Of a stretch of DNA of 64,000 nucleotides, positions 2,241 to 24,354 are shown piece after piece. The notes beneath the pieces were generated by a model. It saw nothing but the letters and a program-made list of their open reading frames with translations, did not search any database and was not told the origin of the DNA. The translations under genes were made by a program, and so were the position numbers. The stretch comes from an uncultured Thermoplasmata archaeon (lineage in GTDB: Archaea; Thermoplasmatota; Thermoplasmata; Halarchaeoplasmatales; Halarchaeoplasmataceae). The first letter of the stretch is position 1. Each line of letters opens with the position of its first letter. The stretch is taken from positions 33,484 to 97,483 of the forward strand of contig CAYMXS010000001.1 of NCBI GenBank assembly GCA_964394465.1, in the 5' to 3' direction.

Positions 2241-2473
2241 TATGCATGGAGAAGGAACTAAATGACATGGACTACGGAGAGAAGGGGGTCATAAAAGAGA
2301 TAGAAGAAGAGCTAAAGATGAAGCTCTCCGGGATGGGGGTCCGAGAAGGTAAAGGGTTGATCTTCAAGACGAGACATCCCATAAACGGTCCAGTTGTTAT
2401 AGAGGTCGAAGGTTCTACCACGTCCATGGGCGCCGGTCTAGCCGGCAAGATAACGGTGGAGGTCGAGGAATGA
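2237..2473 (+). CDS. feoA: FeoA-family small protein, second copy
   Basis: 78 aa. MDYGEKGVIKEI...LSGMGVREGKGLIF matches FeoA. Its 4-nt overlaps with neighbours suggest an operon. Confidence 0.6.
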   Translation: MICMEKELNDMDYGEKGVIKEIEEELKMKLSGMGVREGKGLIFKTRHPINGPVVIEVEGSTTSMGAGLAGKITVEVEE

Positions 2474-3000
2474 AGCTGTTGTTGATGGGTCATCCAAACG
2501 TGGGAAAGAGTGTCCTGTTCAACCGTTTGACCGGCGCCAGCGTGACTGAGTCGAACTACCCGGGCACTACAATCGATTATACCGAGGGGTACATGCAGTT
2601 GGACGGCGAAGAGATACAGCTCATCGATGTACCTGGAACGTTTTCGCTGGAACCCAGGGACAAGGCGGAAGAGGTGGCTGTCGAGATGCTGGAAGATAAT
2701 CCCGACTCGGTGGTCATATGCGTCATAGATTCCACAAAGCTGGAGAGGGGCCTTTACCTGGCGTTAGAGATCATGGAGAAGGGCTTCCCGATGATCATCG
2801 CCTTGAACATGTGGGACGTGGCCGAGGACAAGGAGATCGATATAGACGTAGAGCGATTGAGGGAGATCCTAGAGGTACCAGTGATCCCAACGATCGCGGT
2901 GAGCGGTAAAGGAGTGAAGGAGCTGGTATCCGAGGTGAAGAGAGCGGACCCAGTGGATGTTTCAAGGGTCAAAGAGGAAGTGGAGGTCAGCCCTAAATGA
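2470..3000 (+). CDS. feoB: Ferrous iron transporter FeoB, N-terminal GTPase (G-domain) polypeptide of a split FeoB
   Basis: 176 aa. GHPNVGKSVLFNRLTG is the G1 motif and DVPGTFSL is G3. NMWD is a probable G4, and the domain belongs to the FeoB small GTPase family. The stop overlaps the start of the membrane part. Confidence 0.85.
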   Translation: MKLLLMGHPNVGKSVLFNRLTGASVTESNYPGTTIDYTEGYMQLDGEEIQLIDVPGTFSLEPRDKAEEVAVEMLEDNPDSVVICVIDSTKLERGLYLALEIMEKGFPMIIALNMWDVAEDKEIDIDVERLREILEVPVIPTIAVSGKGVKELVSEVKRADPVDVSRVKEEVEVSPK

Positions 3001-4232
3001 AGCTGGACGTCGATGAAAGGTGGGACCTGGTCGACAGGATAGCCGAGGAAACGGTCAACTACGGGGAGAGGGAGACCACGCTGAAGGACGCCATAGCCGA
3101 GATAACGGTCAAGCCCTGGACCGGCATACCTATAGCTATAACGGTTCTATACGGCTTCTGGGCCTTCTTCGGGGCCTTTGCAGGCTTCTTCACGGACGGC
3201 TTCTTCGTGAAGATATTCGACGAGCACTGGCTGCCCTGGCTTCAGAGTGCCTTTCCCGGCAAGGGCTCCTGGTACTACTTCATACTGGTGGGTGACCCAG
3301 CCGCGGGAAACAGCTTCGAGGCCTTCGGGGTCCTCACCTCCGGTCTGTTCGTGGCCGTGGGTGTCGTCTTACCTGCCATCACCGCCTTCTATCTCTATCT
3401 TATAATCCTGGAAGACAGCGGGTACATGCCCAGATTGGCCGTGTTAGTGGACACATTACTGCACAAGATAGGCCTGCACGGATTCGCTATAGTTCCGATG
3501 GTCCTTTCACTGGGATGTAATGTTCCTGGTGTCGCTGCGACTAGGACCTTGCAGACGAAGAAACAGCGCTTCATGATGATGACGCTCCTTGCCATATTCA
3601 TACCGTGCGGCGCTCAGCTCGGTGTCATTTTCTCTCTGATACCTCAGTACGCCGGCATGATCTTGATCTACCTGTTGATAGGTTTCTTCTTCTTCGGATT
3701 CGTACTGCATAAACTTATACCCGGCAGGTCCCCTGAGATACTGATCGATATACCTCCCTACAGGATGCCCTCCCTGGACAACGTATCCAAGAAACTGTGG
3801 GTCCGGACGAAGTCTTTCTTCACTACGGCGATCCCCTTTGTGCTGTTCGGCGTTGCGTTGGTCAATATCCTTTATCTTGGTGGAGTCATCGATTTTTTGG
3901 CTGGGGCTCTAGGGCCAATTCTCACCAACTGGTTCGGAGTACCCCAGGAGACCATAGGACCCCTTATAGCCGGGTTCCTCAGGAAGGACCTAGCCGTAGC
4001 ACAGCTATCCGCTATAGAGATGACGAAGTATCAGTTGATCAGTTCCGTGGTTCTTGTCAACCTGTACTTCCCCTGTATAGCCACGTTCATAATGATGATG
4101 AAGGAGGGCAGTGAGAGGGGTATAAAAGGGGTGTTAGAGAACCTGGGAGGGAGTATTCTAGTTCTACTGACGGTACTCTTCGTATGGGGCGGCCTGTTGC
4201 ATCTCATCTGGATCGTATCGGGGGTGGGCTAG
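2997..4232 (+). CDS. feoB: Ferrous iron transporter FeoB, C-terminal polytopic membrane polypeptide of a split FeoB
   Basis: 411 aa and highly hydrophobic. FeoB gate-motif-like segments are present, and it starts inside the stop of the G-domain gene. Confidence 0.8.
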   Translation: MKLDVDERWDLVDRIAEETVNYGERETTLKDAIAEITVKPWTGIPIAITVLYGFWAFFGAFAGFFTDGFFVKIFDEHWLPWLQSAFPGKGSWYYFILVGDPAAGNSFEAFGVLTSGLFVAVGVVLPAITAFYLYLIILEDSGYMPRLAVLVDTLLHKIGLHGFAIVPMVLSLGCNVPGVAATRTLQTKKQRFMMMTLLAIFIPCGAQLGVIFSLIPQYAGMILIYLLIGFFFFGFVLHKLIPGRSPEILIDIPPYRMPSLDNVSKKLWVRTKSFFTTAIPFVLFGVALVNILYLGGVIDFLAGALGPILTNWFGVPQETIGPLIAGFLRKDLAVAQLSAIEMTKYQLISSVVLVNLYFPCIATFIMMMKEGSERGIKGVLENLGGSILVLLTVLFVWGGLLHLIWIVSGVG

Positions 4233-4691
4233 GTGGAGGATAAAAAGAGCTTCAAGATAGGTAGTATCTACTTTGGAATCCTCGGTCTTCTTGTGGTTTC
4301 AACGGGAGCTGCAGAGATGATACTGGGGGCTCTGAACAAGACAGTTCAGTCCAGTGCTGTTATATTCTCCGGATACTTCATGCTCTGGCGCGGACTGATA
4401 TTGGTCTCCGCCGGTCTCTTTTATCTGAGCAGTGTGAAGGATTTTTCAGATATCCACCAGCAGGCGAAAACGTTGGTAGGTTCGATCATGATATGGGTCA
4501 TCGCGGGCATGCAGCTGTTCAGCACATTGCTGGGAGCCACACCCGGAGGGGAAGACCGCTGGTTCAATACCTGGGACGGTTTTCTTTCCAGCTTTTCACC
4601 GCCCTATATTCCATCCCTGTTTCTCTTGCCACTCACCCTCTTCGTGTTATACTATGTCTATCTGAACAAAGAAGCAGGAAGGATACAGTGA
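4233..4691 (+). CDS. Small integral membrane protein with about 4 TM helices, function unknown
   Basis: 152-aa hydrophobic ORF. A GTG start sits directly after the feoB stop, so it is likely co-transcribed with feoAB. Confidence 0.4.
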   Translation: MEDKKSFKIGSIYFGILGLLVVSTGAAEMILGALNKTVQSSAVIFSGYFMLWRGLILVSAGLFYLSSVKDFSDIHQQAKTLVGSIMIWVIAGMQLFSTLLGATPGGEDRWFNTWDGFLSSFSPPYIPSLFLLPLTLFVLYYVYLNKEAGRIQ

Positions 4692-4747
4692 GGCTTTATA
4701 AGTTATGGAGATAAAAAACCGAAAGGTTTTAGACCCACCGAATAATT

Positions 4748-5206
4748 GTGTACTCGATGCTTGGAAAAAGAGAAGAGGAATATCTCGAATCTATATACGA
4801 AGTGGTACAGGATAAAGGATACGCCAAGGTGAAGGATATATCTGATGTGATGGATGTCGGTCTCTCCTCGGTAACGGAGATGTTCCAAAAACTGGATGAT
4901 AAGGGCTACATAAACTACAAGAAGTACAGCGGAGTGACCCTGACTGAGAAGGGGGAAGATAAGGCCGTTGAACTGTCGGAGAAACATGAAGTCCTTAGAG
5001 ATTTCTTCGTCATCCTGGGGGTCGATGAGGATATCGCCGACGAGGACGCCTGTAATATCGAGCATGTTGTAAGGCCGGAGACGATGGACAGGTTGACCCA
5101 ATTCGTGGACTTCATCGAGAGCCATGAAGAGCTGCCCTGGCTCGATAGGTTCAAGGAGTATTACGAGACCGGTGATCTGGAGCGACATACCCCGGACGAA
5201 GAGTAG
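4748..5206 (+). CDS. DtxR/MntR-family metal-dependent transcriptional repressor
   Basis: 152 aa. An N-terminal wHTH (EEYLESIYEV...GYAKVKDISDVMDVGLSSVTEMFQKLDDKGYINY) is followed by a metal-binding/dimerisation region (EKHEVLRDFF..EDACNIEHV). It lies next to the feo genes. Confidence 0.8.
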   Translation: MYSMLGKREEEYLESIYEVVQDKGYAKVKDISDVMDVGLSSVTEMFQKLDDKGYINYKKYSGVTLTEKGEDKAVELSEKHEVLRDFFVILGVDEDIADEDACNIEHVVRPETMDRLTQFVDFIESHEELPWLDRFKEYYETGDLERHTPDEE

Positions 5207-8044: not shown

Positions 8045-8404
8045 TTACTGATTCTTCATCGCCTGCAGTTCTTCTAGTGTCTTTTCTATCACGGTCTTCT
8101 CCTTGTTGAAGTGCTTCATCATCCTATTGAGACATTTCTGGTCTTCGTCTTCGCCGTCCAGGTGTTCGGCGCATGCTCTCATGTACTCCTTCGTCTCGTC
8201 CACGTTGGCTTCGATCTCCTCGGGTATCTTATCGCTGTCGTGTTTAACTGCGTCCTGTGGACATACTCCATGACAGAGACCACAGTGTATGCAGCCGTCC
8301 ATGTCTATCTCCGGTTCATCTTCGGCCATATATATCGTATCTACAGGGCACTTCTCTACGCATATTCCGCATCCTATACAGTCGTCTTCATCTATCCATG
8401 GCAT
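8045..8404 (-). CDS. 2x[4Fe-4S] ferredoxin-domain protein
   Basis: 119 aa with two CxxCxxCxxxCP motifs (CIGCGICVEKCP and CIHCGLCHGVCP) and an acidic C-terminal half. Confidence 0.7.
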   Translation of the reverse strand: MPWIDEDDCIGCGICVEKCPVDTIYMAEDEPEIDMDGCIHCGLCHGVCPQDAVKHDSDKIPEEIEANVDETKEYMRACAEHLDGEDEDQKCLNRMMKHFNKEKTVIEKTLEELQAMKNQ

Positions 8405-8673: not shown

Positions 8674-9420
8674 TCATCCTTCGATCCCCTCATCTATCTC
8701 TCCGTTGGGTAACATGGAGTCTGGATGGTATTCGCCTCTCTCCTCCTTTTGGTACCTTACACAGCTCTTCCAGTCGCCCTTGCAGTACAGTTCCACCCAT
8801 CTTCTGTCTATCTTTCCGGCTTCATAGAACCGCTTCATCGGACATACATCGTACCATTTGCACTGTTTCAAGAAGACATTCAATTTCTCATAGTGCCTCT
8901 TCATGTCCTCCTCGAAGGAGTCGTCGTACAGTAAGGAAGCGGGATGAGCTAGAGGATATATTTTCTTGCTATCAGCTAGAAACAGTTCCCCGGTGATCTC
9001 CGAGAATTCCTCCTCGAACGAAAGGTCGTACTTCCCGAATAGATATCTTGTGGAGTAGTATCCCAGAGGTACGAGTATATCCGGATCCACTATATCTATC
9101 TCCCTATCTAGGTACTCGGAGCACGTTTCGATCTCGTCCTGTTTCGGTTTCCTGTAATCCGGCAGCATGCACTTGATCAGGTTCGTCATGTATATCTCGT
9201 CACGCTCGACTCCAGCGTTGTTCAACATCTCATCTAGGACCTCTCCCGAAGGACCTATGAACATCACGCCTTCTTCATCCTCGTTCTCGCCAGGAGCCTG
9301 TGCTATCAGCATGACCCTAGCGTTCCTGTCCCCCTCTCCACACACCGCGTTAGTCCTACTCTCGGAGAGCCTGCATCCTTCGCATATCTTTATCTTCTTG
9401 TTGAGTCCGTGTAGCTTCAT
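8674..9420 (-). CDS. Uracil-DNA glycosylase, family 4 (4Fe-4S type) with a Cys-rich C-terminal extension
   Basis: 248 aa. The N-terminal Cys cluster is CEGCRLSESRTNAVCGEG. The motif-A-like VMLIAQAPGENED and motif-B-like LAHPAS are present. About 60 extra C-terminal residues carry C..C..C (KQCKWYDVCPMKRF...YCKGDWKSCVRY). Confidence 0.75.
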   Translation of the reverse strand: MKLHGLNKKIKICEGCRLSESRTNAVCGEGDRNARVMLIAQAPGENEDEEGVMFIGPSGEVLDEMLNNAGVERDEIYMTNLIKCMLPDYRKPKQDEIETCSEYLDREIDIVDPDILVPLGYYSTRYLFGKYDLSFEEEFSEITGELFLADSKKIYPLAHPASLLYDDSFEEDMKRHYEKLNVFLKQCKWYDVCPMKRFYEAGKIDRRWVELYCKGDWKSCVRYQKEERGEYHPDSMLPNGEIDEGIEG

Positions 9421-9539
9421 GGTTGACTCTTCTCTAAACAGAGTTCATCTTTTAAACTTCAAGGGTCTCGGAGTCATCCTGATTTTTGTTCCTCAAATCC
9501 TATTTTACAACCCACCATATATTTTATCTACCAAAAATC

Positions 9540-9558
9540 TTTCGGTTAACCAAAATTA
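9540..9558 (+). promoter_or_regulatory. Conserved motif TTTCGGTTAACCAAAATTA upstream of the nuoBCDI-like operon. It is near-palindromic around GGTTAACC.
   Basis: TTTcGGTTAACCaAAA is a 16-bp imperfect palindrome. It is flanked by direct ACCAAAA(A/T)T repeats at 9530-9538 and 9548-9556. It lies ~95-110 nt upstream of the start and upstream of TATA-like tgtataat (9573-9580). Confidence 0.4.
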
Positions 9559-9650
9559 CAAATAAACCCACCTGTATAATGAGGTTATATCTGTATGATC
9601 GATCAACTCAGCTATAAAAGCTTACACAATGCTGCAGGGAGACGGATAAC

Positions 9651-10076
9651 TTGAGTCATGACCCGAAGAAGATGAAGAAACTCATAAAGGCTATATGGAT
9701 ATTCAACTGGTTCAACTCGTGTGGGTTCGCTGAACTCATACCGGTCGTTGGTTCCCGATGGGATATGGAACGCTTCGGTATGAAGGTGGTGGGAACACCT
9801 CGACACGCGGACGTCCTGTTCATCGCTGGTTATCAGACCAAGAAATCGATAAAAAAAGCCCAGCGTGTGTACGAACAGATGGCCGAGCCCAAGGTCGTAC
9901 TGGCGTTAGGTTCATGCACCATGACCGGAGGCATGTACTGGGATTCCTACAACACCATAAAGGATCTGGAAGAGTATCTTCCGGTGACCATGTACATCCC
10001 TGGCTGTCCCCCGAGACCCGAAGCGGTCTTCGACGCCTGTGTGCAGATATTCGAACACGTGAAGGGGATGGAATAG
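9651..10076 (+). CDS. NuoB/FpoB/hydrogenase-small-subunit-like protein (complex I 20-kDa subunit family)
   Basis: 141 aa (TTG at 9651; first ATG at 9672). RHADVLFIAGYQTKK, GSCTMTGG and IPGCPP are the family motifs. The first cluster motif is SCGFAE, whereas CC or CxxC is expected, so one Cys ligand is missing. Confidence 0.8.
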   Translation: MSHDPKKMKKLIKAIWIFNWFNSCGFAELIPVVGSRWDMERFGMKVVGTPRHADVLFIAGYQTKKSIKKAQRVYEQMAEPKVVLALGSCTMTGGMYWDSYNTIKDLEEYLPVTMYIPGCPPRPEAVFDACVQIFEHVKGME

Positions 10077-10580
10077 ATGCCCTTGAAAGAGACAGAGATG
10101 TTGGATGAACTGAAGTCTAGGTTCGACCTCGAAGGGAGGATCCAGAGGGATGGTAGGATCTGGGTAACGATAGATAAAAGGGACCTGATCGAGCTGTGTG
10201 TTAAGCTCGATGAGTCAGGATTTACCCACCTCTCTGCCATATCGGCGACGGACTGGCCCGAAGATGAAGAGTTCGAACTGACCTATCATGTCTGGTCCTA
10301 CAGCGAAGACGTGCTCATCACGGTCAAAACGTCCATGGAGAGAGGTGATCCCATAATAGACTCAGTCGTACCGATATGGAGAGAGAACGCCCAGATACAT
10401 GAGAGGGAGATACACGAGCTGTTCGGCATCGATTTCGAAGGGAACGATGACCTAGAACCTCTATTCCTGGAGGACTGGAACGGTCCACCCCCTTTCAGAA
10501 AGGACTTCAACTGGAGGGAGTATGTGCAGGACGAATTCTATGATGAAGAGGATGAGAGGGAGAGTGTGTACTTTGATTAG
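10077..10580 (+). CDS. NuoC/FpoC-like protein (complex I 30-kDa subunit family)
   Basis: 167 aa. The NuoC-like core is ELTYHVWSY...ERE.HELFGIDFEGN. It starts 1 nt after the nuoB-like stop. Confidence 0.75.
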   Translation: MPLKETEMLDELKSRFDLEGRIQRDGRIWVTIDKRDLIELCVKLDESGFTHLSAISATDWPEDEEFELTYHVWSYSEDVLITVKTSMERGDPIIDSVVPIWRENAQIHEREIHELFGIDFEGNDDLEPLFLEDWNGPPPFRKDFNWREYVQDEFYDEEDERESVYFD

Positions 10581-10599
10581 TCAAGAGGGCCTGACCAGG

Positions 10600-11724
10600 A
10601 TGATGAACGACTCAAGGAAAGGCTCAGAAGAGAAGGGATACGACCTTTACTTCGGTCCAGCGCATCCAGGTTCCGGTAACTTCGGTGTCAAGCTGAGAGT
10701 TCAGGGTGAAGAAGTGGTCAAGGCTAGAGCCGATCCAGGCTATCTGCACAGGGGCTTCGAAAAACTGATGGAGTATAGGGTTCCGATACAGAACTCCGTC
10801 CTATCGGACAGATTGTGCGTCCTAGCCGGTCTTAACTGGAACCTTTTACATGCCGAGGCCGTGGAGGAACTGGCGGGGATAGAGGTTCCTGAAAGGGCAC
10901 GGTATATCCGGGTGATAATGGCTGAACTGTCCAGGATACAATCACATCTGATCTGGTACGGTGTTTTCTCCAAGGCTATAGGCTTCGACACCGGCTTCAA
11001 GATAGCCTTCGGCCACAGGGACTATATATTGGACCTGTTCGAGATGATAACCGGCGGTAGGGTCTATCCCGCTGGCTATGTATGTCCCGGCGGGGTGAGA
11101 AGAGACCTTCCAGAGGGATCGGAGGAGAAGATACTCAAGGTATTACTGGACCTGGAAGACATGATAAACATGGAGGAGACCGATCATTACACCTTGCTCA
11201 AAAGGTCCAAGGATGTAGGACACCTTACTCAAGAGGAAGCAAAACGTTTCGGTGCAACGGGTCCAGTCCTCAGAGGATCAGGAGTGAAGAAGGACGTTAG
11301 AAAGGAAGAATCATACGAGGTGTACGATAGATTCGATTTTGAGGTCCCGACCAGAAAAAAGGGAGACGCTAGAGCTAGATACATAATAGGAATAGAAGAG
11401 ATGAAGCAATCTAGAAGGATAATCAGGCAGGCTCTGGACGATATACCCGAGGGAAGATCCATAAACTCCGATCTCGAGAAACCCCAACTGAGAGGAGACC
11501 TACCTGAAGGTGAGGTCTACGTGAGGAACGAGGTCTCCAGAGGAGAAGGAGCGATATATATGGTGGGTAACGGGGAAAAGGAACCATATAGAGTGAAGAT
11601 CAGGGGCCCAGACTTCTTGCACATGATACCGCTCTTCGAGCACATGCTGGAAGGTGCCCAAATAGCGGACGTCCCCGCGATATACTGGAGTCTGAACGTG
11701 TGTCCCGCAGATATGGATAGGTGA
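10600..11724 (+). CDS. NuoD/FpoD-like protein (complex I 49-kDa / [NiFe]-hydrogenase large-subunit family, without NiFe-binding Cys pairs)
   Basis: The longest ORF starts at 10522 and would overlap nuoC by 59 nt. The start chosen here is the ATG at 10600, just after the nuoC stop. LYFGPAHPGSGNFG corresponds to the NuoD N-terminal motif. Where a hydrogenase RxCGxC would lie there is only RLCVLAG. The C-terminus has NVCPADMDR in place of DPCxxC. Confidence 0.8.
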   Translation: MMNDSRKGSEEKGYDLYFGPAHPGSGNFGVKLRVQGEEVVKARADPGYLHRGFEKLMEYRVPIQNSVLSDRLCVLAGLNWNLLHAEAVEELAGIEVPERARYIRVIMAELSRIQSHLIWYGVFSKAIGFDTGFKIAFGHRDYILDLFEMITGGRVYPAGYVCPGGVRRDLPEGSEEKILKVLLDLEDMINMEETDHYTLLKRSKDVGHLTQEEAKRFGATGPVLRGSGVKKDVRKEESYEVYDRFDFEVPTRKKGDARARYIIGIEEMKQSRRIIRQALDDIPEGRSINSDLEKPQLRGDLPEGEVYVRNEVSRGEGAIYMVGNGEKEPYRVKIRGPDFLHMIPLFEHMLEGAQIADVPAIYWSLNVCPADMDR

Positions 11725-11730
11725 ATATAG

Positions 11731-12114
11731 ATGCTTGGAATGCTCCCTAGGTTGTTGAAGAACCTGTTCACGAAGCCCATGACGGTCGAGTATCCCCACG
11801 AATCGATCCCCATACCAGAGGATTACAGAGGGGCTCATGAATATGATGTAGAGAAGTGCGTGTCCTGTTCCATGTGTGCCAAAATCTGCCCAAATAACGC
11901 TATAAAGATGATCGGGGCTCCGGATGAGCTGAAAGAGGAGTTCCCCAAAACCTATCCTGAGATAGACCTGGGTAAGTGCTGTTTCTGTGCCCTCTGCGAG
12001 GATATATGTCCCACAGATGCTCTGTGCATGTCCAAGGAATATTCCCTCTCGACCATGGACCCCGAGGACACCTTCATCGAGCCGTTTCCAGACCATGGAG
12101 AGGAGGCCGAATGA
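11731..12114 (+). CDS. NuoI/FpoI-like 2x[4Fe-4S] ferredoxin subunit
   Basis: 127 aa with CVSCSMCAKICP and CCFCALCEDICP. The N-terminal ..TVEYP.. is as in NuoI. Confidence 0.8.
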   Translation: MLGMLPRLLKNLFTKPMTVEYPHESIPIPEDYRGAHEYDVEKCVSCSMCAKICPNNAIKMIGAPDELKEEFPKTYPEIDLGKCCFCALCEDICPTDALCMSKEYSLSTMDPEDTFIEPFPDHGEEAE

Positions 12115-12168
12115 TAGACCTGGTAGTAAGATAAAGAGAGATAATAAGATGAGATAAGGAGGTATAGT

Positions 12169-12924
12169 ATGAACAGACTGAAGATAGATAAGGAGTGGTG
12201 GAACGAGGTGGTACCGCAGGGATTACCATATCCGTCGTCAACGCTGATAAGTGGACCTGGGGGCTCAGGAAAACCGTTGATAGGATTCGCTTTCGTTCAC
12301 GACTGGTTGAGGGCCGGAGGCAACGTCGTATTCGTGCCTCTCCAGTATCCGGATATGGTCTTCGTAAAAAAGACCTTGAAGGACCTTTACGATATGGACT
12401 TGGAGGGATACGAAGAGAACACCTCCTACGTGCAGTTCGATCCTGAGATCGAAGGGCATGAAAAGGTAGGCCAGAACGAGTGGAGAGCAAACTTATTGAT
12501 GCCGGACATATGGGATGAGATGATAGATGAAGCCGAATATTCGATGGCGGATGGTGGAGAATTGGGTACGCTGGTCTTCGCCTCTGCATTGAACATCCTC
12601 CTGTTCTCCCCCACATACCGGGAACTGACGGTAGATAACATAGAGAGGCTTTTGCGAGACAAGAGGGGACGATCATTCCTCTTCAATGTAAGCACCAGTG
12701 CCTTCCGAGAGGCTGTAAGAGACTGGGAAGAGGCTGCCGACAACCTGATGTTCTCCAGGATGGGAGATGACATGAAACTTTATCTAACCGTAGATAGGTT
12801 AGCGAACGAGGAGGTCGCTCTTGACGAGGTCTACGTGCCGATCGAAAGGGAGATGCTGCAGGAGATAAAGGATGTGGCCGAGACCGTCAGGAAGCGAAGG
12901 ATACCTCAGCTGAAGGAGATCTAA
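12169..12924 (+). CDS. RecA-superfamily ATPase-like protein (KaiC/RadA-like, COG0467-type) with a deviant Walker A
   Basis: 251 aa. The P-loop ISGPGGSGKPLIG reads GKP where GKT/S is expected. A RecA-like core follows. Confidence 0.45.
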   Translation: MNRLKIDKEWWNEVVPQGLPYPSSTLISGPGGSGKPLIGFAFVHDWLRAGGNVVFVPLQYPDMVFVKKTLKDLYDMDLEGYEENTSYVQFDPEIEGHEKVGQNEWRANLLMPDIWDEMIDEAEYSMADGGELGTLVFASALNILLFSPTYRELTVDNIERLLRDKRGRSFLFNVSTSAFREAVRDWEEAADNLMFSRMGDDMKLYLTVDRLANEEVALDEVYVPIEREMLQEIKDVAETVRKRRIPQLKEI

Positions 12925-12926
12925 AG

Positions 12927-13574
12927 GTGATGGATATGAAGGTGACCATCGTATATGACAACACGGTCTATAGGGAAGGTTTAGAGAGTGACTGGGGCAT
13001 CTCTGCCCTCGTTGAAAAAGAAGGTGTCCCCAAGATACTGTTCGATACAGGGGGCAGTGGACGTATACTGCTCAACAACATGGACAAGCTGGGTGTGGAT
13101 CCAAGATCGATAGAAGAGGTCTTCATCTCACACGCCCATTATGACCATACTGGGGGACTGTCCGCGCTCCTCACTGAGAACAGAGAAGTCACGGTCTGGA
13201 AACCCCCTTCCTTCAGAGGGGTCAAGAATGCAGAGGAAGTGGTCACGGTCGAAGGGCCGGCTGAACTGCATGACGGAGTCCATTCTACGGGAGAACTGCA
13301 GGGTATCGAGCAGTCGCTGTGCGTGGAGACCGAAAGTGGTATCGTCGTTCTGGCGGGCTGCTCCCATCCAGATATGGGAAATATACTGAAGATTGCCTCT
13401 CAGTTCGGCGATGTCCATGGTATAATCGGGGGACTTCATGGGACGAAGAGCGGACAGCTGAAGGGCCTCGAGTTGATATGCGCAACCCACTGCACCCAGC
13501 ACAAAGAAGCCATCAGGAAGAGATATCCTGAGCAGTACATGGAAGGGGGAGTTGGAAGGGTCATAGAGATCTGA
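12927..13574 (+). CDS. MBL-fold metallo-hydrolase (paralogue B)
   Basis: 215 aa. ISHAHYDHTGGL is the HxHxDH motif. It is roughly 40% identical by eye, co-linear, to the 7225-7893 protein, on the opposite strand. Confidence 0.6.
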   Translation: MMDMKVTIVYDNTVYREGLESDWGISALVEKEGVPKILFDTGGSGRILLNNMDKLGVDPRSIEEVFISHAHYDHTGGLSALLTENREVTVWKPPSFRGVKNAEEVVTVEGPAELHDGVHSTGELQGIEQSLCVETESGIVVLAGCSHPDMGNILKIASQFGDVHGIIGGLHGTKSGQLKGLELICATHCTQHKEAIRKRYPEQYMEGGVGRVIEI

Positions 13575-13661
13575 TAAGGGATGATGTTCGTGTTTGAAGA
13601 TAACTAGTTCGATCGATCTGTAAAGCAGGAGAAAAGATCATGAAATATAAGAGGTAAAAGG

Positions 13662-14831
13662 ATGAAGAACGAGATAGATGTATCTGAAAGGATTAGAAAT
13701 ATAGAGAAATCAGCCATACACGAGATGACCAGATTGTCCAAGGATATAGACGACGTAGCGTTCATCTCCTGGGCGAAGCCGACTTCTAAGACGCCCAGAC
13801 ATATACGAGACGGTGCTATAAAGGCCATAGAGGACGGCTCGGTCGGAGGCTATTCACAGAGTGAAGGATTACCGGAACTCAGAGAAGAGATCGCCAAGAA
13901 GCTGAGAAGGGACAACGATATAGACGCTAGAAAGGAGGAAGTGATGGTCACAGTGGGCGCTATAGAGGGACTTTCGGCCGCCATGATGACCGCCATCGAC
14001 CCAGGAGACGAGGTCATCCTTCCTTCACCGACGTACTCGACCCATATAAGGGAGATTTTACTTGCTTCTGGCAAACCAGTCTTCGTGCCCAGTATAGAGG
14101 AAGAAGGTCATGCTCTGGATATCGAAGGTATCGAAGAGGCCATCACGCCGAAAACGGAGGCTATAATATACTGCTCACCGAGCAACCCGACCGGTGCTGT
14201 TTACACCGAAGAGCAACTAAAACAGCTGGCCGATATAGCATTGGAACACGACCTAACGGTCATCACCGACGAGGCCTACGAGTATTTTACATACGACGGT
14301 CAGGAGCACTTCAGTATCGGCTCGATACCTGAGATGAAGAAGAACACGATCAGCGGTTTTACCTTTACGAAGACGTATGCCATGACTGGCTGGCGTCTGG
14401 GTTATCTTCACGCCGACGAGGAGATGATCAAGCAGATAAAGAAGGCACACATACCCTTCGCGATATGCGCTCCAGTTGTTTCTCAATATGCAGCACTTTC
14501 AGCTCTAAAGGGACCACAGGACTGCGTTGAAGAGTTCAGAGAGCATTACCTTTCTGGACGTGACCTGATGTGCGACCGTCTTGACGAGCTGGACGAGGTC
14601 TTCGATTATCAGAAGCCAAAGGGGTCTTACCTCATGTTCCCCAGGGTTAAACTCGAAGAGGGTAAAGACTCTACCAGTTTCGCTAAAAGACTGCTGAAAG
14701 AGGCGAAGGTTTCAGCTACTCCCGGGATAGCGTTCGGTCCGACGGGAGAAAGCCACCTCAGGATGTCGTTCTGCGTTTCCGAGGACATGATAAACAAGGC
14801 CTTCGACCGGATGGAGGACTATTTCACATAG
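13662..14831 (+). CDS. Pyridoxal-phosphate-dependent aminotransferase, class I/II (AspAT-like)
   Basis: 389 aa. The fold-type I pattern is present, including SPSNPTG and the TFTKTYAMTGWRLGY PLP-lysine region. Confidence 0.85.
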   Translation: MKNEIDVSERIRNIEKSAIHEMTRLSKDIDDVAFISWAKPTSKTPRHIRDGAIKAIEDGSVGGYSQSEGLPELREEIAKKLRRDNDIDARKEEVMVTVGAIEGLSAAMMTAIDPGDEVILPSPTYSTHIREILLASGKPVFVPSIEEEGHALDIEGIEEAITPKTEAIIYCSPSNPTGAVYTEEQLKQLADIALEHDLTVITDEAYEYFTYDGQEHFSIGSIPEMKKNTISGFTFTKTYAMTGWRLGYLHADEEMIKQIKKAHIPFAICAPVVSQYAALSALKGPQDCVEEFREHYLSGRDLMCDRLDELDEVFDYQKPKGSYLMFPRVKLEEGKDSTSFAKRLLKEAKVSATPGIAFGPTGESHLRMSFCVSEDMINKAFDRMEDYFT

Positions 14832-14836
14832 GATAG

Positions 14837-15202
14837 ATGATAACGATGGACGACGAAGAGATACTCGCCATGGAGCCCGGAGAGGAGATGAACAAAAGGG
14901 TTGCCGAGAAGCTGATGGACGGGGTTTCTGGTGACTATTCTCAGGACGTTTCCTCCTCCTGGAAGGTGGTCAAAAGACTCTGCGAGACGGGGTGGAGGAT
15001 GGATATCATGTCCTCCAAAAAGGAGGAGAACGTGGGCGGTATCAAGATGGTGAACGGCACTCCAGTGAGCTTGAACTTCCTCGCGGAACGGGTGAAGTGC
15101 GATAACCTTCCAGAGGCGGTATGTAAGGTCGCTTTACTGATCAAAAACAACTCCCATCGTATCGAGGATATCGTTTCTGATACTGGTCAACGAAGCATTT
15201 AA
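14837..15202 (+). CDS. Hypothetical protein resembling the phage ABA-sandwich domain (Phage_ABA_S-like)
   Basis: 121 aa. EEMNKRVAEKLMDG..YSQDVSSSWKVVKRLCETGW..LPEAVCKVALLI mirrors the ELDALVAEKVMGW / AAWEVVEKL / AICRAAL pattern I recall for that domain. Confidence 0.35.
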   Translation: MITMDDEEILAMEPGEEMNKRVAEKLMDGVSGDYSQDVSSSWKVVKRLCETGWRMDIMSSKKEENVGGIKMVNGTPVSLNFLAERVKCDNLPEAVCKVALLIKNNSHRIEDIVSDTGQRSI

Positions 15203-15227
15203 GGTGATGTAAACCATATCATCCAAC

Positions 15228-16172
15228 ATGGAAGAGAAGCTCTCCTACGGGCCGGTACCGTCAAGACGTCTGGGCCAGAGCCTAGGGGTCAACAACATAC
15301 CTCCCAAGATATGCACCTATTCATGCATCTACTGCCAGCTCGGAAGGACTCTTGATATGCAGGTGGAGAGGGAGGAGTTCTACACAGTGGAAGAGGTCTT
15401 TGAGGCGGTGAAGGAGAAGGTCGAAACTGCTGAAGAGAACAACGAAGAGATAGATCACATCTCGTTTGTACCGGACGGAGAACCCACTCTGGATAGGAGT
15501 TTAGGAGAGAAGATAGAAAGGGTAAAAGACCTGGGTCAAGAAGTTGCGGTCATATCCAACGCTTCCCTGATTTACGATGAAGAAGTGAGGGAAGACCTAT
15601 CCAAGGCGGATTGGGTCTCCCTTAAGATGGACGCCGTTTCCAAAGAGGGGTGGAAGAAAGTCAATCGACCGCACAAGGACTTGGACTTGGAAAGGATCAT
15701 GGACGGCATACACAAGTTCTCAGATATGTTCAAAGGAAGTTTGAACACCGAGACCATGCTGGTCGAAGGAGTGAACGACTCCACATCGGAGCTGGATAAG
15801 ATAGCTGATGAGCTGGTCGATATAGACGCGGATAAGAGTTATATCGGGATACCGACGAGGCCTCCAGCCGAGGACTGGGTTAAGCCGCCGGATGAGAAGA
15901 AGATAACCGAGGCCTACAGGATATTCGAAGAAGAAGGTCTCGATGTTGAATATCTTATCGGTTATGAAGGCGACACATTCGCTTCCTCCGGTGACCTGAA
16001 AGAGGACCTACTGAGCATAACCTCGGTGCACCCCATGAGAGAGAGGCAGGTGGAGAAGCTGATCTCGAAGTCTAAGGGTGATTGGTCCGAGGTCCAGGAA
16101 CTCATCGAAGAGGAAAAACTTATAGAGACGGAGTTCAAGGATGAAAAATTCTATATGAGAAAACTAGCTTGA
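15228..16172 (+). CDS. Radical SAM protein
   Basis: 314 aa. The N-terminal YGPVPSRRLGQSLGVNNIPPKICTYSCIYCQLG carries the CxxxCxxC cluster motif. The subfamily could not be assigned. Confidence 0.75.
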   Translation: MEEKLSYGPVPSRRLGQSLGVNNIPPKICTYSCIYCQLGRTLDMQVEREEFYTVEEVFEAVKEKVETAEENNEEIDHISFVPDGEPTLDRSLGEKIERVKDLGQEVAVISNASLIYDEEVREDLSKADWVSLKMDAVSKEGWKKVNRPHKDLDLERIMDGIHKFSDMFKGSLNTETMLVEGVNDSTSELDKIADELVDIDADKSYIGIPTRPPAEDWVKPPDEKKITEAYRIFEEEGLDVEYLIGYEGDTFASSGDLKEDLLSITSVHPMRERQVEKLISKSKGDWSEVQELIEEEKLIETEFKDEKFYMRKLA

Positions 16173-16194
16173 GGATGAATCCCAGGGGTAGTAC

Positions 16195-16761
16195 ATGACT
16201 GAAGAGATAGAGAGATGGGAAAGAGAGGAAGGACCTGATTTTCTCAGGAAGATAGGGCTCGAAGAGGGCGACAAGGTCCTAGATTTTGGAGCCGGCCACG
16301 GTCATTACACTCTTCCAGCCGCCGCTGTGGTCAAGGGCGCTGGAACGGTCTACGCGGTGGATAAGGAGGAGGGTCCGCTTCATTCCATAGCCGATAAGGC
16401 CTCTGAACACGGACTGAGGAACGTTAGAACGATAAAGAACTCCGGCGGTATAGAGCTCAAGTTCGAGGAAAACTCCATAGACAGGGTACTGCTTTTCGAT
16501 ATACTGCACTACATGGAAAGAGAGGATAGAAGGGAACTGTATCGGGAAGCCAGGAGGATACTGAAACCTGAAGGCGTTCTGTCCGTCTATCCTAAACATA
16601 CCAAGGAGGACTTCCCCATGGGTGAGTTCGAAGACATGAGCGTGGAAGACGTGGCCAACGAGGTACAGGAATTGGGCCTAGAACTCAAGGATAAGATATA
16701 CGGGAAGATAGCCCACGACGAGGGACTCGTTGAAGGCTGTGTTCTGAACTTCATCAAATGA
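16195..16761 (+). CDS. Class I SAM-dependent methyltransferase
   Basis: 188 aa. VLDFGAGHGHYT is motif I and a Rossmann MTase fold follows. Confidence 0.7.
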   Translation: MTEEIERWEREEGPDFLRKIGLEEGDKVLDFGAGHGHYTLPAAAVVKGAGTVYAVDKEEGPLHSIADKASEHGLRNVRTIKNSGGIELKFEENSIDRVLLFDILHYMEREDRRELYREARRILKPEGVLSVYPKHTKEDFPMGEFEDMSVEDVANEVQELGLELKDKIYGKIAHDEGLVEGCVLNFIK

Positions 16762-17399
16762 AAGAACTAGTGAGCCACATGGAACCCTTTGAACGATACA
16801 CGGAACGCTACGAGGATTGGTTCGAGAGGAACAGATCTGCGTATAAATCGGAGCTCAAAGCCGTTGATGAGTTGTTACCGGATGAAGGCGAAGCCCTAGA
16901 GGTGGGAGTCGGAACTGGCAGGTTCTCCGAACCTTTTTCAGTTGAACACGGCATAGACCCGTCTTTGAAGATGCTGAAGATAGCGAGGGAAAGGGGCATA
17001 AAGGTCGTGCAAGGTACGGGTGAAGAACTCCCCTTCGAAGGTGAAAGTTTCGATCGGGTTCTGATAGTCACCACGATATGCTTCTTTGAAGAACCAAAAA
17101 AGGCTCTAGAGGAAGCGAAAAGGGTCCTAAAGCCTGGCGGTGCCATCATCATCGGTTTTATAGACAGGGAAAGCCCTATAGGTAGAAGATACCAGGAGAA
17201 GAAGGAGGAGAACGTGTTCTACAGGGAAGCTGTATTTTTCTCTGCTCAGGAAGTCACGGAACTGCTTGAAGATGTAGGATTCAAGGATCTCTCTTATGTT
17301 CAAACTCTCTTCGGAGTAGAAACGAGGGAGGTCGAAGAACCGAAGAAGGGATGCGGCGAGGGCTCCTTCGTTGTAATCGGAGCTAAGAAATCCAGATGA
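16758..17399 (+). CDS. Class I SAM-dependent methyltransferase (UbiE/Methyltransf_11-like)
   Basis: 213 aa. LEVGVGTGRF is motif I and LKPGGAIIIGF is the post-II motif. It overlaps the preceding MTase by 4 nt. Confidence 0.75.
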   Translation: MKELVSHMEPFERYTERYEDWFERNRSAYKSELKAVDELLPDEGEALEVGVGTGRFSEPFSVEHGIDPSLKMLKIARERGIKVVQGTGEELPFEGESFDRVLIVTTICFFEEPKKALEEAKRVLKPGGAIIIGFIDRESPIGRRYQEKKEENVFYREAVFFSAQEVTELLEDVGFKDLSYVQTLFGVETREVEEPKKGCGEGSFVVIGAKKSR

Positions 17400-17920: not shown

Positions 17921-19174
17921 TTAATCCTTTTCTCTCGTGGGGCTTCTGAGCAGTTCTATCTCGTCTTCAAAGAACTTGTCCAATGCCTTCTTGACCTTCT
18001 CTCCCTTCACGTGATATATGTCCACCAGATGGTCCCTCATGGTATGGAAAGAGATCTCCCCGATCTCTCTCGTGAAGAGGTAATCTATCTTCTCGTCTAT
18101 AAGCAGGTGGGAAGCGTTGAGCCCGGCTCTAACCTCTCTATCTTTGTACTCGTTCTCTATGACCTCGAAGCTCTCTACGCTGTCTCTTTCTTTGTCCACG
18201 GAGACCACGGCATAATATGGAGCTCTACCGAAATGGTCCGAGATGTTGGAATCTAGGCCCTTCTTCTCATCGATTGGTATGGCGATCCTGCTCCTGGACG
18301 TTTTATAGGGCTCTATGTGCGTTGTGAAATCATCCAGCCTGTCTATCTCCTCCTTCAGCTTGTTCTCTAGATTATCGGCCACCTCATGAGCCCTGTCGAC
18401 GTCCACGAACTTCCTCACCATGACGGTGGATTCGCCGAATATGAAGGGGCCGGATTTCCTCAGTTTAAGGTCCTTGAAGCCCTCTACACCCGAGATACTA
18501 CCTATGACACGGATCACTTCCTTCTCTATCTCCTCGCTAGGTGACTTGTCCATCAAGGCGTATATGCTGTCCCTGATCGATTCCACACCCACTTTCATTA
18601 TCAGGAGGGCTATAGCTATGGTGGTCAGACCCTCGACGTACTGTATCTGGTAGTAGCTTAAGATGACCCCTAAAAGGACCACAAGAGAGGACAAGACGTC
18701 CATCATGGATTCCTTAGAGTTTACTATGAGGGACTGGGAGTTCGTCACCTCTCCCATCTTCTTCTGGTACCTGGATATGAGGAAAGAAATTATGACCGAG
18801 GAAAGAGCGACCGAGACCGCGACGTAGGTGTGAGAGACCTGAGAGACCTCGAACAGTTTTGAATAGCCCTCTCTGATGAACTCGAAGGCCGCGTACATGA
18901 TGAAGAGAGAGACGAACAACGTTGCTATGGACTCCGCCTTGTAGTAGCCGTAAGGGAACTCCTTGTCCGGGTCTCTTCTAGATAGTTTAAGACCGAACCA
19001 GGAGGCGAATATGGGAAAGACGTCCGCCGCGGAGTGCAGGGCGTCCGTGATCAGTATGAGGTTTCCGGACAGAACGCCGGCTATCCACTTGGCTGCTGCT
19101 AAAACCACCGTGAGTATGGTCGTTGTTAGAGCCGCTCTCTCACCCTTCTTCAGCGTTTCATCTTTATCGGTCAT
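17921..19174 (-). CDS. Cation diffusion facilitator (CDF) transporter fused to a C-terminal NifX/NifB-like FeMo-cofactor-binding-type domain
   Basis: 417 aa. The N-terminal region has 6 TM helices with the CDF HSAADV motif. The cytoplasmic domain is followed by RIAIPIDEKKGLDSNISDHFGRAPYYAVVSVD..., which is the same domain family as the 804-1181 protein. Confidence 0.75.
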   Translation of the reverse strand: MTDKDETLKKGERAALTTTILTVVLAAAKWIAGVLSGNLILITDALHSAADVFPIFASWFGLKLSRRDPDKEFPYGYYKAESIATLFVSLFIMYAAFEFIREGYSKLFEVSQVSHTYVAVSVALSSVIISFLISRYQKKMGEVTNSQSLIVNSKESMMDVLSSLVVLLGVILSYYQIQYVEGLTTIAIALLIMKVGVESIRDSIYALMDKSPSEEIEKEVIRVIGSISGVEGFKDLKLRKSGPFIFGESTVMVRKFVDVDRAHEVADNLENKLKEEIDRLDDFTTHIEPYKTSRSRIAIPIDEKKGLDSNISDHFGRAPYYAVVSVDKERDSVESFEVIENEYKDREVRAGLNASHLLIDEKIDYLFTREIGEISFHTMRDHLVDIYHVKGEKVKKALDKFFEDEIELLRSPTREKD

Positions 19175-19474: not shown

Positions 19475-20188
19475 GTGTTACTCAAGCTGATCTATATGAC
19501 TCAGGAAGATGATCCGAGGACCGGTGTATGGAGACTTATAGAAGAAGATGACGTCGATTCTCTCTTGGATAAAGCTGCCCGACTTCACGGCCACTACTGT
19601 CCCGGTCTAGCGTTGGGAGTCAAGGCCGCCTTCGAAGCGGTGAAAGAGATGGGCCTCAAATCAGAGGGCATGGAAGACGTCCTGGCGATAGTCGAGACGA
19701 ACAACTGTTCGACGGACGGTATCCAGTTCGTCACGGGCTGTACCTTCGGTAATAACTCGCTGATCTTTAGAGACCTGGGCAAGACGGCCTTCACCCTGGC
19801 AAGAAGGGATGGAGAAGGTGTAAGGTTCGTGACAAGAAAGGATGCTGGAGAGAACTGGAACGGTGAATTCCCCGAGTATGAAAGGCTCTTCGAGAAGATA
19901 GTGAAAGAGAGGGAGGGCACTGAAGAGGACAAAGAAAGGTTCTCTCGATTGGCTAGAGAGGTCTCACACCATGTTGTCAACGTCCCCGCTGAGAAGTTGT
20001 TCAAAGTGGAGGATGTTATGAAGGAGATACCTGAATACGCGCCCATCCATGAAAGTTACGTTTGTGATAGGTGTGGAGAAAGCGTCATGGCGACCAGAAC
20101 CGTTGAGGAGGACGGTTCTGTTTACTGCCTCTCCTGTTCCAGCCAGGATTTTAACGAACTGACCGGCTACGGCATCGTGAGGGGTTAA
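19475..20188 (+). CDS. FmdE/FwdE-family protein (formylmethanofuran dehydrogenase subunit E-like domain with a C-terminal zinc ribbon)
   Basis: 237 aa. HGHYCPGLALG is the signature FwdE motif. The C-terminus has CDRCGE...CLSC. Confidence 0.75.
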   Translation: MLLKLIYMTQEDDPRTGVWRLIEEDDVDSLLDKAARLHGHYCPGLALGVKAAFEAVKEMGLKSEGMEDVLAIVETNNCSTDGIQFVTGCTFGNNSLIFRDLGKTAFTLARRDGEGVRFVTRKDAGENWNGEFPEYERLFEKIVKEREGTEEDKERFSRLAREVSHHVVNVPAEKLFKVEDVMKEIPEYAPIHESYVCDRCGESVMATRTVEEDGSVYCLSCSSQDFNELTGYGIVRG

Positions 20189-20191
20189 AAG

Positions 20192-23964: not shown

Positions 23965-24154
23965 GTTTGAGGAATCCGATAGAGAGTAAATAAGTATTTT
24001 TCTTGAGGAAATTGTTAAATATGAAAAATATGTGTTGGTTGATGCTTGGCCTTGATTGGCTTAGGTTTCCTAATAAGAGCAAATGGCTATACGTTTGCTC
24101 CTACGGGGAATCAGAGATTCCCCTGAGTCGCAAGATTTCACTACGTTCAATTTT

Positions 24155-24229
24155 GCTCCCGTAGTGTAGTCCGGCCAATCATTTTGGCCTCTCGAGCCAA
24201 AGTCCCGGGTTCGAATCCCGGCGGGAGCA
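24155..24229 (+). tRNA. tRNA-Glu (anticodon CUC)
   Basis: 75 nt: GCTCCCG-TA-GTGTAGTCCGGCCAATCAT-TTGGC-CTCTCGA-GCCAA-AGT-CCCGG-GTTCGAAT-CCGGG... folds as a cloverleaf. The acceptor stem pairs GCTCCCG with CGGGAGC, and discriminator A is at 24229. The D-arm GUGUAGUCCGGCCAAUCAU is the archaeal tRNA-Glu form. The 7-nt anticodon loop has U33 and G37. No CCA is encoded. Confidence 0.85.
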
Positions 24230-24332
24230 TTTTTATGCGACCAGAGGGTTTCGAACTTTAGTTCGTGAACAAAATTTTTTGGTTAATTTTGTGAGCGTTT
24301 GGAATCATGAGTGAAACGAATGATTCTGAACA

Positions 24333-24354
24333 GAATCCCGGCGGGAGCATTTTT
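24333..24354 (+). repeat. Exact 22-nt duplicate of the tRNA-Glu 3' end plus flank (GAATCCCGGCGGGAGCATTTTT), 120 nt downstream of the tRNA
   Basis: Identical to 24213-24234. A third, partial copy GCGGGAGCATTTA is at 24407-24419. Confidence 0.8.

Follow-up and report, generated by a model that had tools for sequence, protein, structure and literature searches.

The locus considered here poses the question of what four genes for the peripheral part of a complex I-like enzyme might do where no membrane part is encoded beside them. They lie in a stretch of 64,000 nucleotides from an uncultured Thermoplasmata archaeon (contig CAYMXS010000001.1, positions 33,484 to 97,483; called the window in what follows) as four intact open reading frames (ORFs) similar to NuoB, NuoC, NuoD and NuoI on the + strand (9651/9672-12114), abbreviated here as BCDI. 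An earlier sequence-only reading had seen in them an orphan module, with no adjacent membrane subunit and with degenerate cluster ligands. The isolation of the genes was confirmed: neither Pfam searches of the called genes (positions ~1-60434) nor BLAST searches of membrane-subunit seeds against all window ORFs returned a gene for NuoA, NuoH, NuoJ, NuoK, NuoL, NuoM or NuoN, or an Mrp or Mbh membrane gene, in the window. The description of the ligands as degenerate has to be given up, since what was taken for degeneration is an invariant signature of the type found in the membrane-bound sulfane reductase (MBS) and in MBX, systems that the earlier reading had not considered. Judged from its sequences, the module is very probably a peripheral arm of MBS/MBX type, its products being homologues of MbsJ, MbsK, MbsL and MbsN.

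Gene content and ligand signature of the module

The B-like, MbsJ-like small subunit (9651..10076, +) has 141 aa if translated from a TTG at 9651 and 134 aa from the ATG at 9672 used in the NCBI gene call; it matches PF01058 (4e-24) and, without gaps, chain J of the Pyrococcus furiosus MBS structure (6u8y_J, 1.3e-36; 45% identity to MbsJ), and for its single [4Fe-4S] site it offers just three Cys, C24, C89 and C119. The C-like, MbsK-like subunit (10077..10580, +; 167 aa) carries no cofactor motif and matches PF00329 (1.9e-30) as well as a NuoC-type NCBIfam model, its best solved relative being 6u8y_K (4.3e-17). The D-like, MbsL-like large subunit (10600..11724, +; 374 aa) matches PF00346 (7e-70) and 6u8y_L (2.3e-78, 41% identity); it is identical to the database protein P0001, which also has 374 aa, and the 400-aa ORF that begins at 10522 is over-extended. 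The I-like, MbsN-like subunit (11731..12114, +; 127 aa) contains two Fer4 domains (NuoI TIGR01971, 1e-31; 6u8y_N, 7.8e-24) in which CxxCxxCxxxCP occurs twice in complete form (nt 11857-11892 and 11977-12012, +), predicted to hold two [4Fe-4S] clusters. With the D-like gene starting at 10600, the intergenic gaps are 0, 19 and 6 nt; the tight packing described earlier therefore stands, and the overlaps do not, none of them being a true one.

For all four proteins the top solved-structure match is P. furiosus MBS (6u8y J, K, L and N), ahead of NDH-1, complex I, membrane-bound hydrogenase (MBH) and formate hydrogenlyase, and the D-like protein is 41% identical to MbsL versus 35-37% to true Thermoplasmata MbhL. 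An AlphaFold model of the D-like protein (pLDDT 69) gave its best Foldseek TM-score, 0.79, to 6u8y_L; this supports the NuoD/MbsL fold, and the TM-scores of 0.75-0.79 obtained for all families do not discriminate between them. In MBS the proximal [4Fe-4S] cluster is held by three Cys only (MbsJ C28, C93 and C123), and the iron without a Cys ligand is the proposed catalytic site of S-S reduction; of the four hydrogenase Cys, two (C85 and C385) are left in MbsL, which has no equivalents of Nqo4 H38 and Y87, the quinone ligands of complex I, or of MbhL E21, the Glu for proton reduction in MBH (PMC7684303). The beta1-beta2 loop of MBS couples to the membrane arm.

The window proteins follow this pattern residue by residue. 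In the B-like motif WFNSCGFAEL (nt 9708-9737, +), C24 corresponds to MbsJ C28 and, within the CC pair of complex I, to the first Cys; Gly takes the place of the second, and MbsJ C25 is replaced by Phe. C24, C89 and C119 align without gaps with MbsJ C28, C93 and C123, three of the four canonical Cys being kept; SCGFAE likewise aligns ungapped with SCCFIE of NdhK, and the tandem CC for cluster N2 is absent. A shifted CC or CxxC motif that had escaped the eye would have undone the earlier observation of a missing NuoB Cys, but the alignments to NdhK, Nqo6 and MbsJ are ungapped and hold no such motif. In the D-like protein, DRLCVLAG (10807..10830, +) is a remnant of the N-terminal Ni-Fe motif RxCGxC, with C73 equivalent to MbsL C85, and NVCPADMDR (11695..11721, +) a remnant of the C-terminal DPCxxCxxR, with C368 equivalent to MbsL C385 and the second Cys changed to Asp. 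SCGFAE, RLCVLAG and NVCPADMDR are thus present as the sequence-only reading had them; true Thermoplasmata MBH carries the group 4 [NiFe] motifs CNGC, RICGIC..H and DPCMSCTNR in their place. The beta1-beta2 loop FGPAHPGSGNFGVKL (10651..10695, +), located in alignments to 6u8y_L, NdhH and the 49-kDa subunit, has neither the quinone-binding His (Nqo4 H38) nor a Glu equivalent to MbhL E21; HPGSGNFGV stands against HPAAHGV of complex I, DRLCVLAG against DRLDYVS, and the position of Y87 is Val. At the sequence level the top matches, the three-Cys site, the two residual Ni-Fe Cys and the lack of H38, Y87 and E21 equivalents are those of an MBS/MBX head, and the proximal cluster is predicted to be site-differentiated and ligated by three Cys.

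A cross-domain family with and without membrane arms

The module is not the oddity of a single genome that it had seemed, but one member of a large family that spans two domains and has membrane-bound members. Our locus set comprises 81 loci, the window and the best 80 of 396 relatives from a scan with one genome per GTDB species; in these best 80 the D-like protein is 59-81% identical to that of the window. A second set holds the 120 closest of thousands of database relatives of the D-like protein, all at least 69% identical. The source metagenome-assembled genomes (MAGs) carry the labels Thermoplasmata, Dehalococcoidia, Atribacterota, Thermotogae, Altiarchaeota, Heimdallarchaeota (with two closed genomes among them), Armatimonadota and others, and copies without a membrane arm stand in the closed Heimdallarchaeum genomes CP084166 and CP084167. 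Among representatives clustered at 50% identity a single full-length sequence (444 bits) stands for the whole family, and those ranked after it reach no more than 292 bits and 45% identity; this gap of ~150 bits indicates that the family is discrete.

Conservation within the family is high at the very positions discussed above. In the B-like motif WFNSCGF-x-EL the residues F, N, S, C, G and F are invariant (67/67), and only three Cys are conserved in 67-69 relatives, with no fourth (C130 varies). The D-like motifs read DR(L/I/V)C(V/I)(L/F)E and CPAD(M/L/V)DR, both Cys being invariant throughout the 81 loci and the 120 proteins, and CPAD is found in 120/120 closest database proteins and in every full-length locus. 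The beta1-beta2 loop is nearly invariant across the family. The invariance of the B-like motif extends to loci with and without a membrane arm alike, and 138 columns of the D-like alignment are invariant in both classes. The alignments and intact frames indicate genes under purifying selection rather than decaying ones, and a ligand pattern that is a conserved signature, not the product of decay.

ORFs were called for every locus and assigned by means of BLAST seeds and Pfam, and the loci fall into two classes. BCDI lies within a full Mrp/Mbh-type membrane operon in 24 of the 81. These loci belong to Dehalococcoidia, Desulfobacterota, Zixibacteria, Altiarchaeota and uncultured archaea, and their D-like protein is 59-70% identical to that of the window. 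The operon runs MnhE-MrpF-MnhG-MbhD-MbhE-MnhB-4L-MbhH-MbhI, with a NuoH-like MbhM adjoining BCDI, and in every membrane-linked member MbhM and MbhI, the anchor genes, are immediate neighbours of BCDI. In a Zixibacteria locus (L094) the order is A..I-M-B-C-D-I, with a TusA gene alongside; A..I-M-J-K-L-N, with M before J, is the order of the P. furiosus mbx operon, and the membrane-linked members have it too. The other 57 loci, from at least six phyla and including every Thermoplasmata locus, are stand-alone, with no Mrp, Mbh or NuoH gene within the available flanks. Adequate flanks (at least 1.2-1.5 kb on both sides) are available for 31 of these 57, namely 17 of the Thermoplasmata clade, 7 of Heimdallarchaeota, 3 of Thermotogae, 2 of Atribacterota and 2 others. 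In a neighbour-joining tree of the D-like proteins the membrane-linked forms are basal and paraphyletic, and the Thermoplasmata stand-alone forms make up a crown clade.

Two further observations concern the membrane-linked operons. TusA sulfur-carrier genes adjoin two of them (L047:12816-13316, Thermodesulfobacteriota; L094:4563-4814, Zixibacteria), which hints at a protein-persulfide substrate. Four Dehalococcoidia loci (L037, L039, L040 and L049) have two peripheral arms in tandem behind a single Mrp/MbhH module, the first being the family's BCDI with its own M and the second a paralogous MbhI'-B'-C'-D'-M'-I' whose D protein is 36-39% identical; in these tandems two heads could share one antiporter module.

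The stand-alone loci of the Thermoplasmata clade are set apart by their neighbours. A gene with an MvhD (FlpD) domain lies within 2.5 kb of BCDI in 10 of 24 such loci, in at least four distinct arrangements, as compared with 0/22 membrane-linked loci with scorable flanks and no other stand-alone locus. In five species and two metagenome contigs an HdrA-MvhD fusion, HdrC and HdrB come after BCDI; the top NCBIfam match of the fusion is HdrA2 (840 bits), and in one of these loci (L004) the genes of BCDI-HdrA2(MvhD)-HdrC-HdrB overlap or nearly abut. Elsewhere BCDI is followed by a fusion of MvhD with a ferredoxin (Fer4) domain (L042), or HdrA-like and FrhB-like genes accompany MvhD, on the upstream or the downstream side (L029, L023). 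In the closest relatives of the window (L007, L077) FdhB-FdhA-MvhD stands divergently upstream of BCDI, and FdhA passes the TIGR01591 cutoff. The guess of an Hdr-like partner in the sequence-only reading is thus borne out in the relatives of the window, where HdrA(-MvhD), HdrC and HdrB come directly after BCDI.

Proposed function and its alternatives

No membrane anchor is encoded with the module and MvhD, HdrABC and FdhAB recur as neighbours; it is therefore most probably a soluble cytoplasmic module. For the Thermoplasmata clade, we slightly favour a role in soluble form, either in connection with MvhD, Hdr or Fdh or as a simple ferredoxin sink. To the fuller reading, that of a complete and functional MBS/MBX-type arm acting as a soluble sulfane- or disulfide-reducing module fed by ferredoxin or MvhD, we give about an even chance. 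Low-potential electrons, supplied by ferredoxin or by an MvhD-type [2Fe-2S] adaptor, would be accepted by the I-like subunit and relayed over its two [4Fe-4S] clusters to the only such cluster in the B-like subunit. The open iron of this three-Cys cluster would bind an S-S bond and cleave it reductively, as in MBS, the substrate being a polysulfide, an organic trisulfide or disulfide, or a protein persulfide held in a pocket formed by the B-like with the D-like subunit; neither H2 nor quinone would take part. The module could then serve as a non-pumping electron sink for reduced ferredoxin, or MvhD could connect it to flavoprotein complexes of Hdr or Fdh type, where it would take the position that Mvh hydrogenase holds in methanogens. 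We infer solubility and physical contact with MvhD or Hdr from gene content and gene order. A sulfane or disulfide substrate, suggested by analogy with the shared cluster chemistry of MBS and by the TusA neighbours in two membrane-linked operons, is a tentative assignment to which we give somewhat less than an even chance. A bolder and rather doubtful extension is that the freed head of a respiratory complex has been reused as the catalytic input or output module of flavin-based bifurcation, docking via MvhD onto HdrA2B2C2 or FdhAB. If this were true, BCDI would replace the Mvh hydrogenase and couple sulfane or disulfide chemistry at the three-Cys cluster to bifurcation, and the arrangement would be common among subsurface Thermoplasmata, Heimdallarchaeia and Atribacterota having stand-alone copies as well.

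The direct gene search covered the window, and whether a membrane arm is encoded in trans was tested indirectly, through relatives of the M subunit and of MbhL. A NuoH-like query from the membrane-linked loci nearest the Thermoplasmata clade (L022/L094) retrieved Thermoplasmata and Atribacteria homologues at 57-61% identity, and each of the five such M genes examined is part of a complete MBH operon of 14 genes that encodes its own J-K-L-M-N, L carrying RICGIC..H and J carrying CNGC. Two Thermoplasmata relatives of MbhL that were looked up (L175, L176) both belong to stand-alone HypE-J-K-L(410 aa)-N-HypF clusters and keep all Ni-Fe Cys; HycI, HypC and HypD are also near the [NiFe] MbhJKLN cluster of L176. 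A separation of this kind has been published for Thermoprofundales subgroup E, in which MbhJKLN is encoded apart from MbhABCDEFGHIM (Zhang et al. 2022, PMC9585477), and the clusters of L175 and L176 confirm it. This split MBH has a different, genuine hydrogenase head and can account for the membrane arms without a head that are described below. We rejected the idea that the published Thermoprofundales clusters are the present module mis-annotated, since stand-alone clusters of that type carry all four Ni-Fe Cys and Hyp genes, and also the idea that BCDI replaced a [NiFe] J-K-L-N at one locus, the neighbouring aminotransferases being only 32-36% identical and not orthologous. A search for shared flanking genes linking the orphan arms to organisms with stand-alone BCDI gave no informative overlap.

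These results bear on the alternative of a split membrane complex, in which the module would be the head of an MBS/MBX-like ion pump whose arm, of Mrp-type subunits with MbhH, MbhI and MbhM, is encoded elsewhere in the genome; as a variant, it may serve as a second, alternative head on the arm that belongs to the organism's MBH hydrogenase. We regard a split complex as possible but on the unlikely side. Several observations nevertheless weigh against a soluble, catalytic module and have to be set beside it. Membrane arms without a head (layout MbhA..I-M) were found in 11 of 80 M-subunit loci of a metagenome scan, so that separated arms do exist in Thermoplasmata, and relatives of the window's lineage (Candidatus Natronoplasma) are reported to have a group 4d MBH. 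A search of B, D and I for class-specific residues that distinguish stand-alone from membrane-linked members found none, the beta1-beta2 loop is equally conserved in the two classes, and the stand-alone form has no visible adaptation to life without an anchor; docking in trans, even sharing of heads, is possible, as the two heads behind one Mrp module in some Dehalococcoidia loci and the family's 24 full operons would also allow. The window itself contains no MvhD, Hdr or Fdh gene, a KaiC-like ATPase being the neighbour of the module, and its CVLAG, in which Ala replaces the family Glu of C-x-x-E, recurs in none of the 80 other loci and is found in just 1 of the 120 database proteins. At the codons for A76 and G77 (window 10816-10821) three assemblies agree on CVLAG versus the family's C-x-x-E-(P/A/S), and the Glu lost there is the residue that had replaced a bridging Ni-Fe Cys. 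What favours a soluble module over a split complex is that MbhM and MbhI, which abut BCDI wherever it is membrane-linked, are absent from 57 loci in at least six phyla; that the M subunits of the headless arms are sister to the M of Thermoplasmata MBH and not to the family's own M, with [NiFe] J-K-L-N and Hyp clusters to match them; that all five Thermoplasmata and Atribacteria M genes examined have heads of their own; and that the tight BCDI-HdrA2CB operons favour a cytoplasmic partner. The lack of class-specific residues is also softened as an objection by the MbsJKLN subcomplex of P. furiosus (C-MBS), which was obtained from a 100,000 x g supernatant and reduces dimethyltrisulfide (PMC7684303), being soluble and active without any change of sequence. 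The evidence leans, though not decisively, towards a soluble module; an MBS-type head and a true [NiFe] head may also be interchangeable on one separately encoded Mrp-MbhM arm.

The remaining alternatives deny the module its proposed chemistry or give it another. It might be a pure electron-transfer adaptor that wires ferredoxin to MvhD, Hdr or Fdh through its three clusters and catalyses nothing, the three-Cys site and the D-like pocket being leftovers; the association with these partners would fit, as would the finding that the MbsL Cys pair is dispensable for MBS activity (PMC7684303), but near invariance of the pocket loop, C-x-x-E, C-x-x-D and the three-Cys motif across two domains is hard to explain without catalysis and a 374-aa D subunit is a costly scaffold for a wire, so that we think such an adaptor improbable. 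Annotation pipelines assign the genes to a canonical Q-module of complex I, Fpo or NDH-1 that reduces quinone or methanophenazine, and relatives are named "NADH-quinone oxidoreductase subunit D" in databases. The D-like protein exceeds the NuoD cutoff (NF004739, 378 bits versus 360), the B-like protein exceeds those of a NuoB subfamily (160 bits versus 116) and of NuoB PRK06411, and the I-like protein falls just below that of NuoI (108.9 versus 113). Yet the second Cys of the tandem CC is Gly throughout the family, the Nqo4 H38 and Y87 equivalents are absent, FpoD scores 323 bits against a cutoff of 600, no Nuo membrane subunit is present in the window, and the arms of membrane-linked relatives are of Mrp/Mbh and not of Nuo type; as the sequence-only reading had held, this is no canonical quinone module, and we consider the assignment very improbable. 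Its companion claim, that the module is not a [NiFe] hydrogenase, is upheld as well. A cryptic hydrogenase, or a decaying remnant on its way to a pseudogene, could point to a weak PF00374 match at the N-terminus of the D-like protein and to the two retained Ni-Fe Cys. The other two are gone, however, the bridging Cys of both motifs being replaced (by E or A in one, by D in the other) in all 200 relatives; the small subunit has no CxxC; no hyp or hycI maturation gene lies within +-10 kb of the module, unlike in true J-K-L-N clusters; and intact frames with 59-81% identity across domains speak against decay, leaving this explanation, too, with hardly any probability.

Our literature searches found no description of a stand-alone MBS-like head, and none turned up of the family as a discrete, mostly stand-alone, cross-domain clade or of its coupling to MvhD, HdrA2CB or FdhAB in Thermoplasmata. 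Already known were the chemistry and fold, from MBS (2020), and free-standing heads, from true MBH (2022). Pipelines name the genes NADH-quinone oxidoreductase B, C, D and I, and complex I or a quinone chain can thus be wrongly inferred in many sediment and brine MAGs, those of Thermoplasmata, Heimdallarchaeia, Atribacterota and Dehalococcoidia among them. As the invariant hallmark of a large cross-domain family, the three-Cys cluster likely extends the reach of FeS-catalysed S-S reduction beyond hyperthermophiles. The occurrence of one family both in Mrp-type pumps and as a free four-gene unit near Hdr and MvhD provides a live example of modular complex I evolution, and makes the module a concrete candidate for a new Hdr partner.

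Surroundings in the window and comparison with known systems

The flanking genes are those named in the sequence-only reading, a divergent uracil-DNA glycosylase upstream of the B-like gene (8674-9420, -; PF03167, 3e-32) and a KaiC/RecA-like ATPase (12169..12924, +; PF06745, 2.4e-6) that begins 54 nt past the I-like gene and whose ATG is preceded by a GGAGG site. A TATA-like box, CTATAAAAG (9612..9620, +), read from the sequence ~30 nt before the TTG at 9651, is likely the archaeal promoter of the four-gene operon. A scan of 9300-13700 on the + strand predicted no terminator-like site, sigma-70 promoter and terminator scans being uninformative for an archaeon. The KaiC-like ATPase sits where HdrA stands in other Thermoplasmata, and at 62-67% identity it also follows the I-like gene in the closest species (L006, L007 and L077). 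Upstream, the window has the glycosylase, a small Zn-ribbon protein and a divergent 2x[4Fe-4S] ferredoxin (8045..8404, -; 119 aa; Fer4 1.6e-16; FdxA-family match) versus FdhB-FdhA-MvhD in L007/L077. The ferredoxin lies 1.2 kb upstream and may donate electrons to the module; two Atribacterota loci have homologues of it (63-65% identity), likewise upstream, at a distance of 1.2-1.6 kb.

A further group of genes is conserved next to BCDI in Thermoplasmata, in shuffled order and on either side. They encode an MBL-fold protein, a radical SAM protein, two UbiE-like methyltransferases and a class I/II aminotransferase whose identity between loci is 72-89%, and are present at 12927-17399 of the window and in eight other loci (L004, L006, L007, L009, L015, L017, L046 and L077). 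Together with the KaiC-like ATPase, these neighbours gave no coherent functional theme in NCBIfam and Pfam searches. An iron theme is seen near the module, with FeoA/FeoB and a DtxR-type repressor, and an FmdE-like protein with a periplasmic-binding-protein ABC transporter (2470-5206 and 19475-23213); a cation-efflux protein fused to a NifB/X-like domain is encoded at 17921-19174.

The window is archaeal DNA, as its archaeal RNase P RNA (24802-25142, -) indicates. The closest cluster of D-like proteins (81% identity) includes Candidatus Natronoplasma, a genus of the halophilic "salt-in" order Ca. Halarchaeoplasmatales, and the acidic proteins of the window fit that order. The RNase P RNA gene stands with tRNA-Glu(CTC) and an Orc1/Cdc6 gene (26778-27947, -) at 24154-27947, and a replication origin may lie near this cluster. 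At 36927-53488 there are three consecutive very large genes (1290, 1277 and 2844 aa) for probably secreted PKD/MAM-domain proteins, one with a metallophosphatase domain and one with a PBP-like domain. The match to contig CAJOVN010000002.1 ends at 60434/60435, where the last 3.5 kb are other DNA joined without N, and features spanning this junction would be artefacts.

Among known systems, the Q-module of complex I, NDH-1 and Fpo has the same four folds and the same three-cluster wire, with TM-scores of 0.75-0.78 and a NuoD cutoff that the D-like protein exceeds; the window module differs in having one Cys for the tandem CC, no quinone ligands, two retained hydrogenase Cys and no Nuo membrane subunits. 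The split MBH (Zhang et al. 2022, PMC9585477) is likewise a lone four-gene J-K-L-N head in Thermoplasmata, and its authors proposed that the head functions without a membrane arm. It is nonetheless a genuine [NiFe] head. Its large subunit has RICGIC..H and DPCMSCTNR, its small subunit has CNGC, HypE and HypF flank the genes, HycI, HypC and HypD are near one of the two clusters, and identity to the D-like protein of the window is only 36-37%; a matching orphan arm exists for it, unlike for the family of the window, for which none was found.

The MvhAGD-HdrABC and FdhAB-MvhD-HdrABC complexes of methanogens resemble the loci of relatives, in which a hydrogenase-type pair of large and small subunits stands by MvhD and HdrA, B and C, HdrA being of the MvhD-fused HdrA2 type; BCDI could, topologically, feed or drain MvhD as MvhAG does. 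BCDI differs in descending from group-4 membrane-type enzymes and not from group 3c, and in lacking a Ni-Fe site; the window has neither Hdr nor MvhD, and a contact with MvhD is suggested by gene order only.

MBS (P. furiosus, 2020, PMC7684303) is the best solved relative of all four subunits, the window proteins being only 41% (MbsL) and 45% (MbsJ) identical. The non-ligand MbsJ C25 is Phe in the window, and C-terminal extensions are missing (134-141 aa for the B-like protein versus 192 for MbsJ, 127 aa for the I-like protein versus 208 for MbsN). The window module also differs in having no nearby membrane subunits, its relatives in adjoining MvhD, Hdr and Fdh, which was not seen for MBS in the sequences examined, and the membrane-linked relatives in having one MbhH-type antiporter subunit instead of MbsH plus MbsH'. 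What the two have in common are the same three Cys and short loop at the proximal cluster, the same residual large-subunit Cys in C-x-x-E and C-x-x-D contexts without the quinone His and Tyr or the proton-reducing Glu, an I-like subunit with two [4Fe-4S] clusters and, on the side of MBS, an engineered JKLN subcomplex that is active in soluble form.

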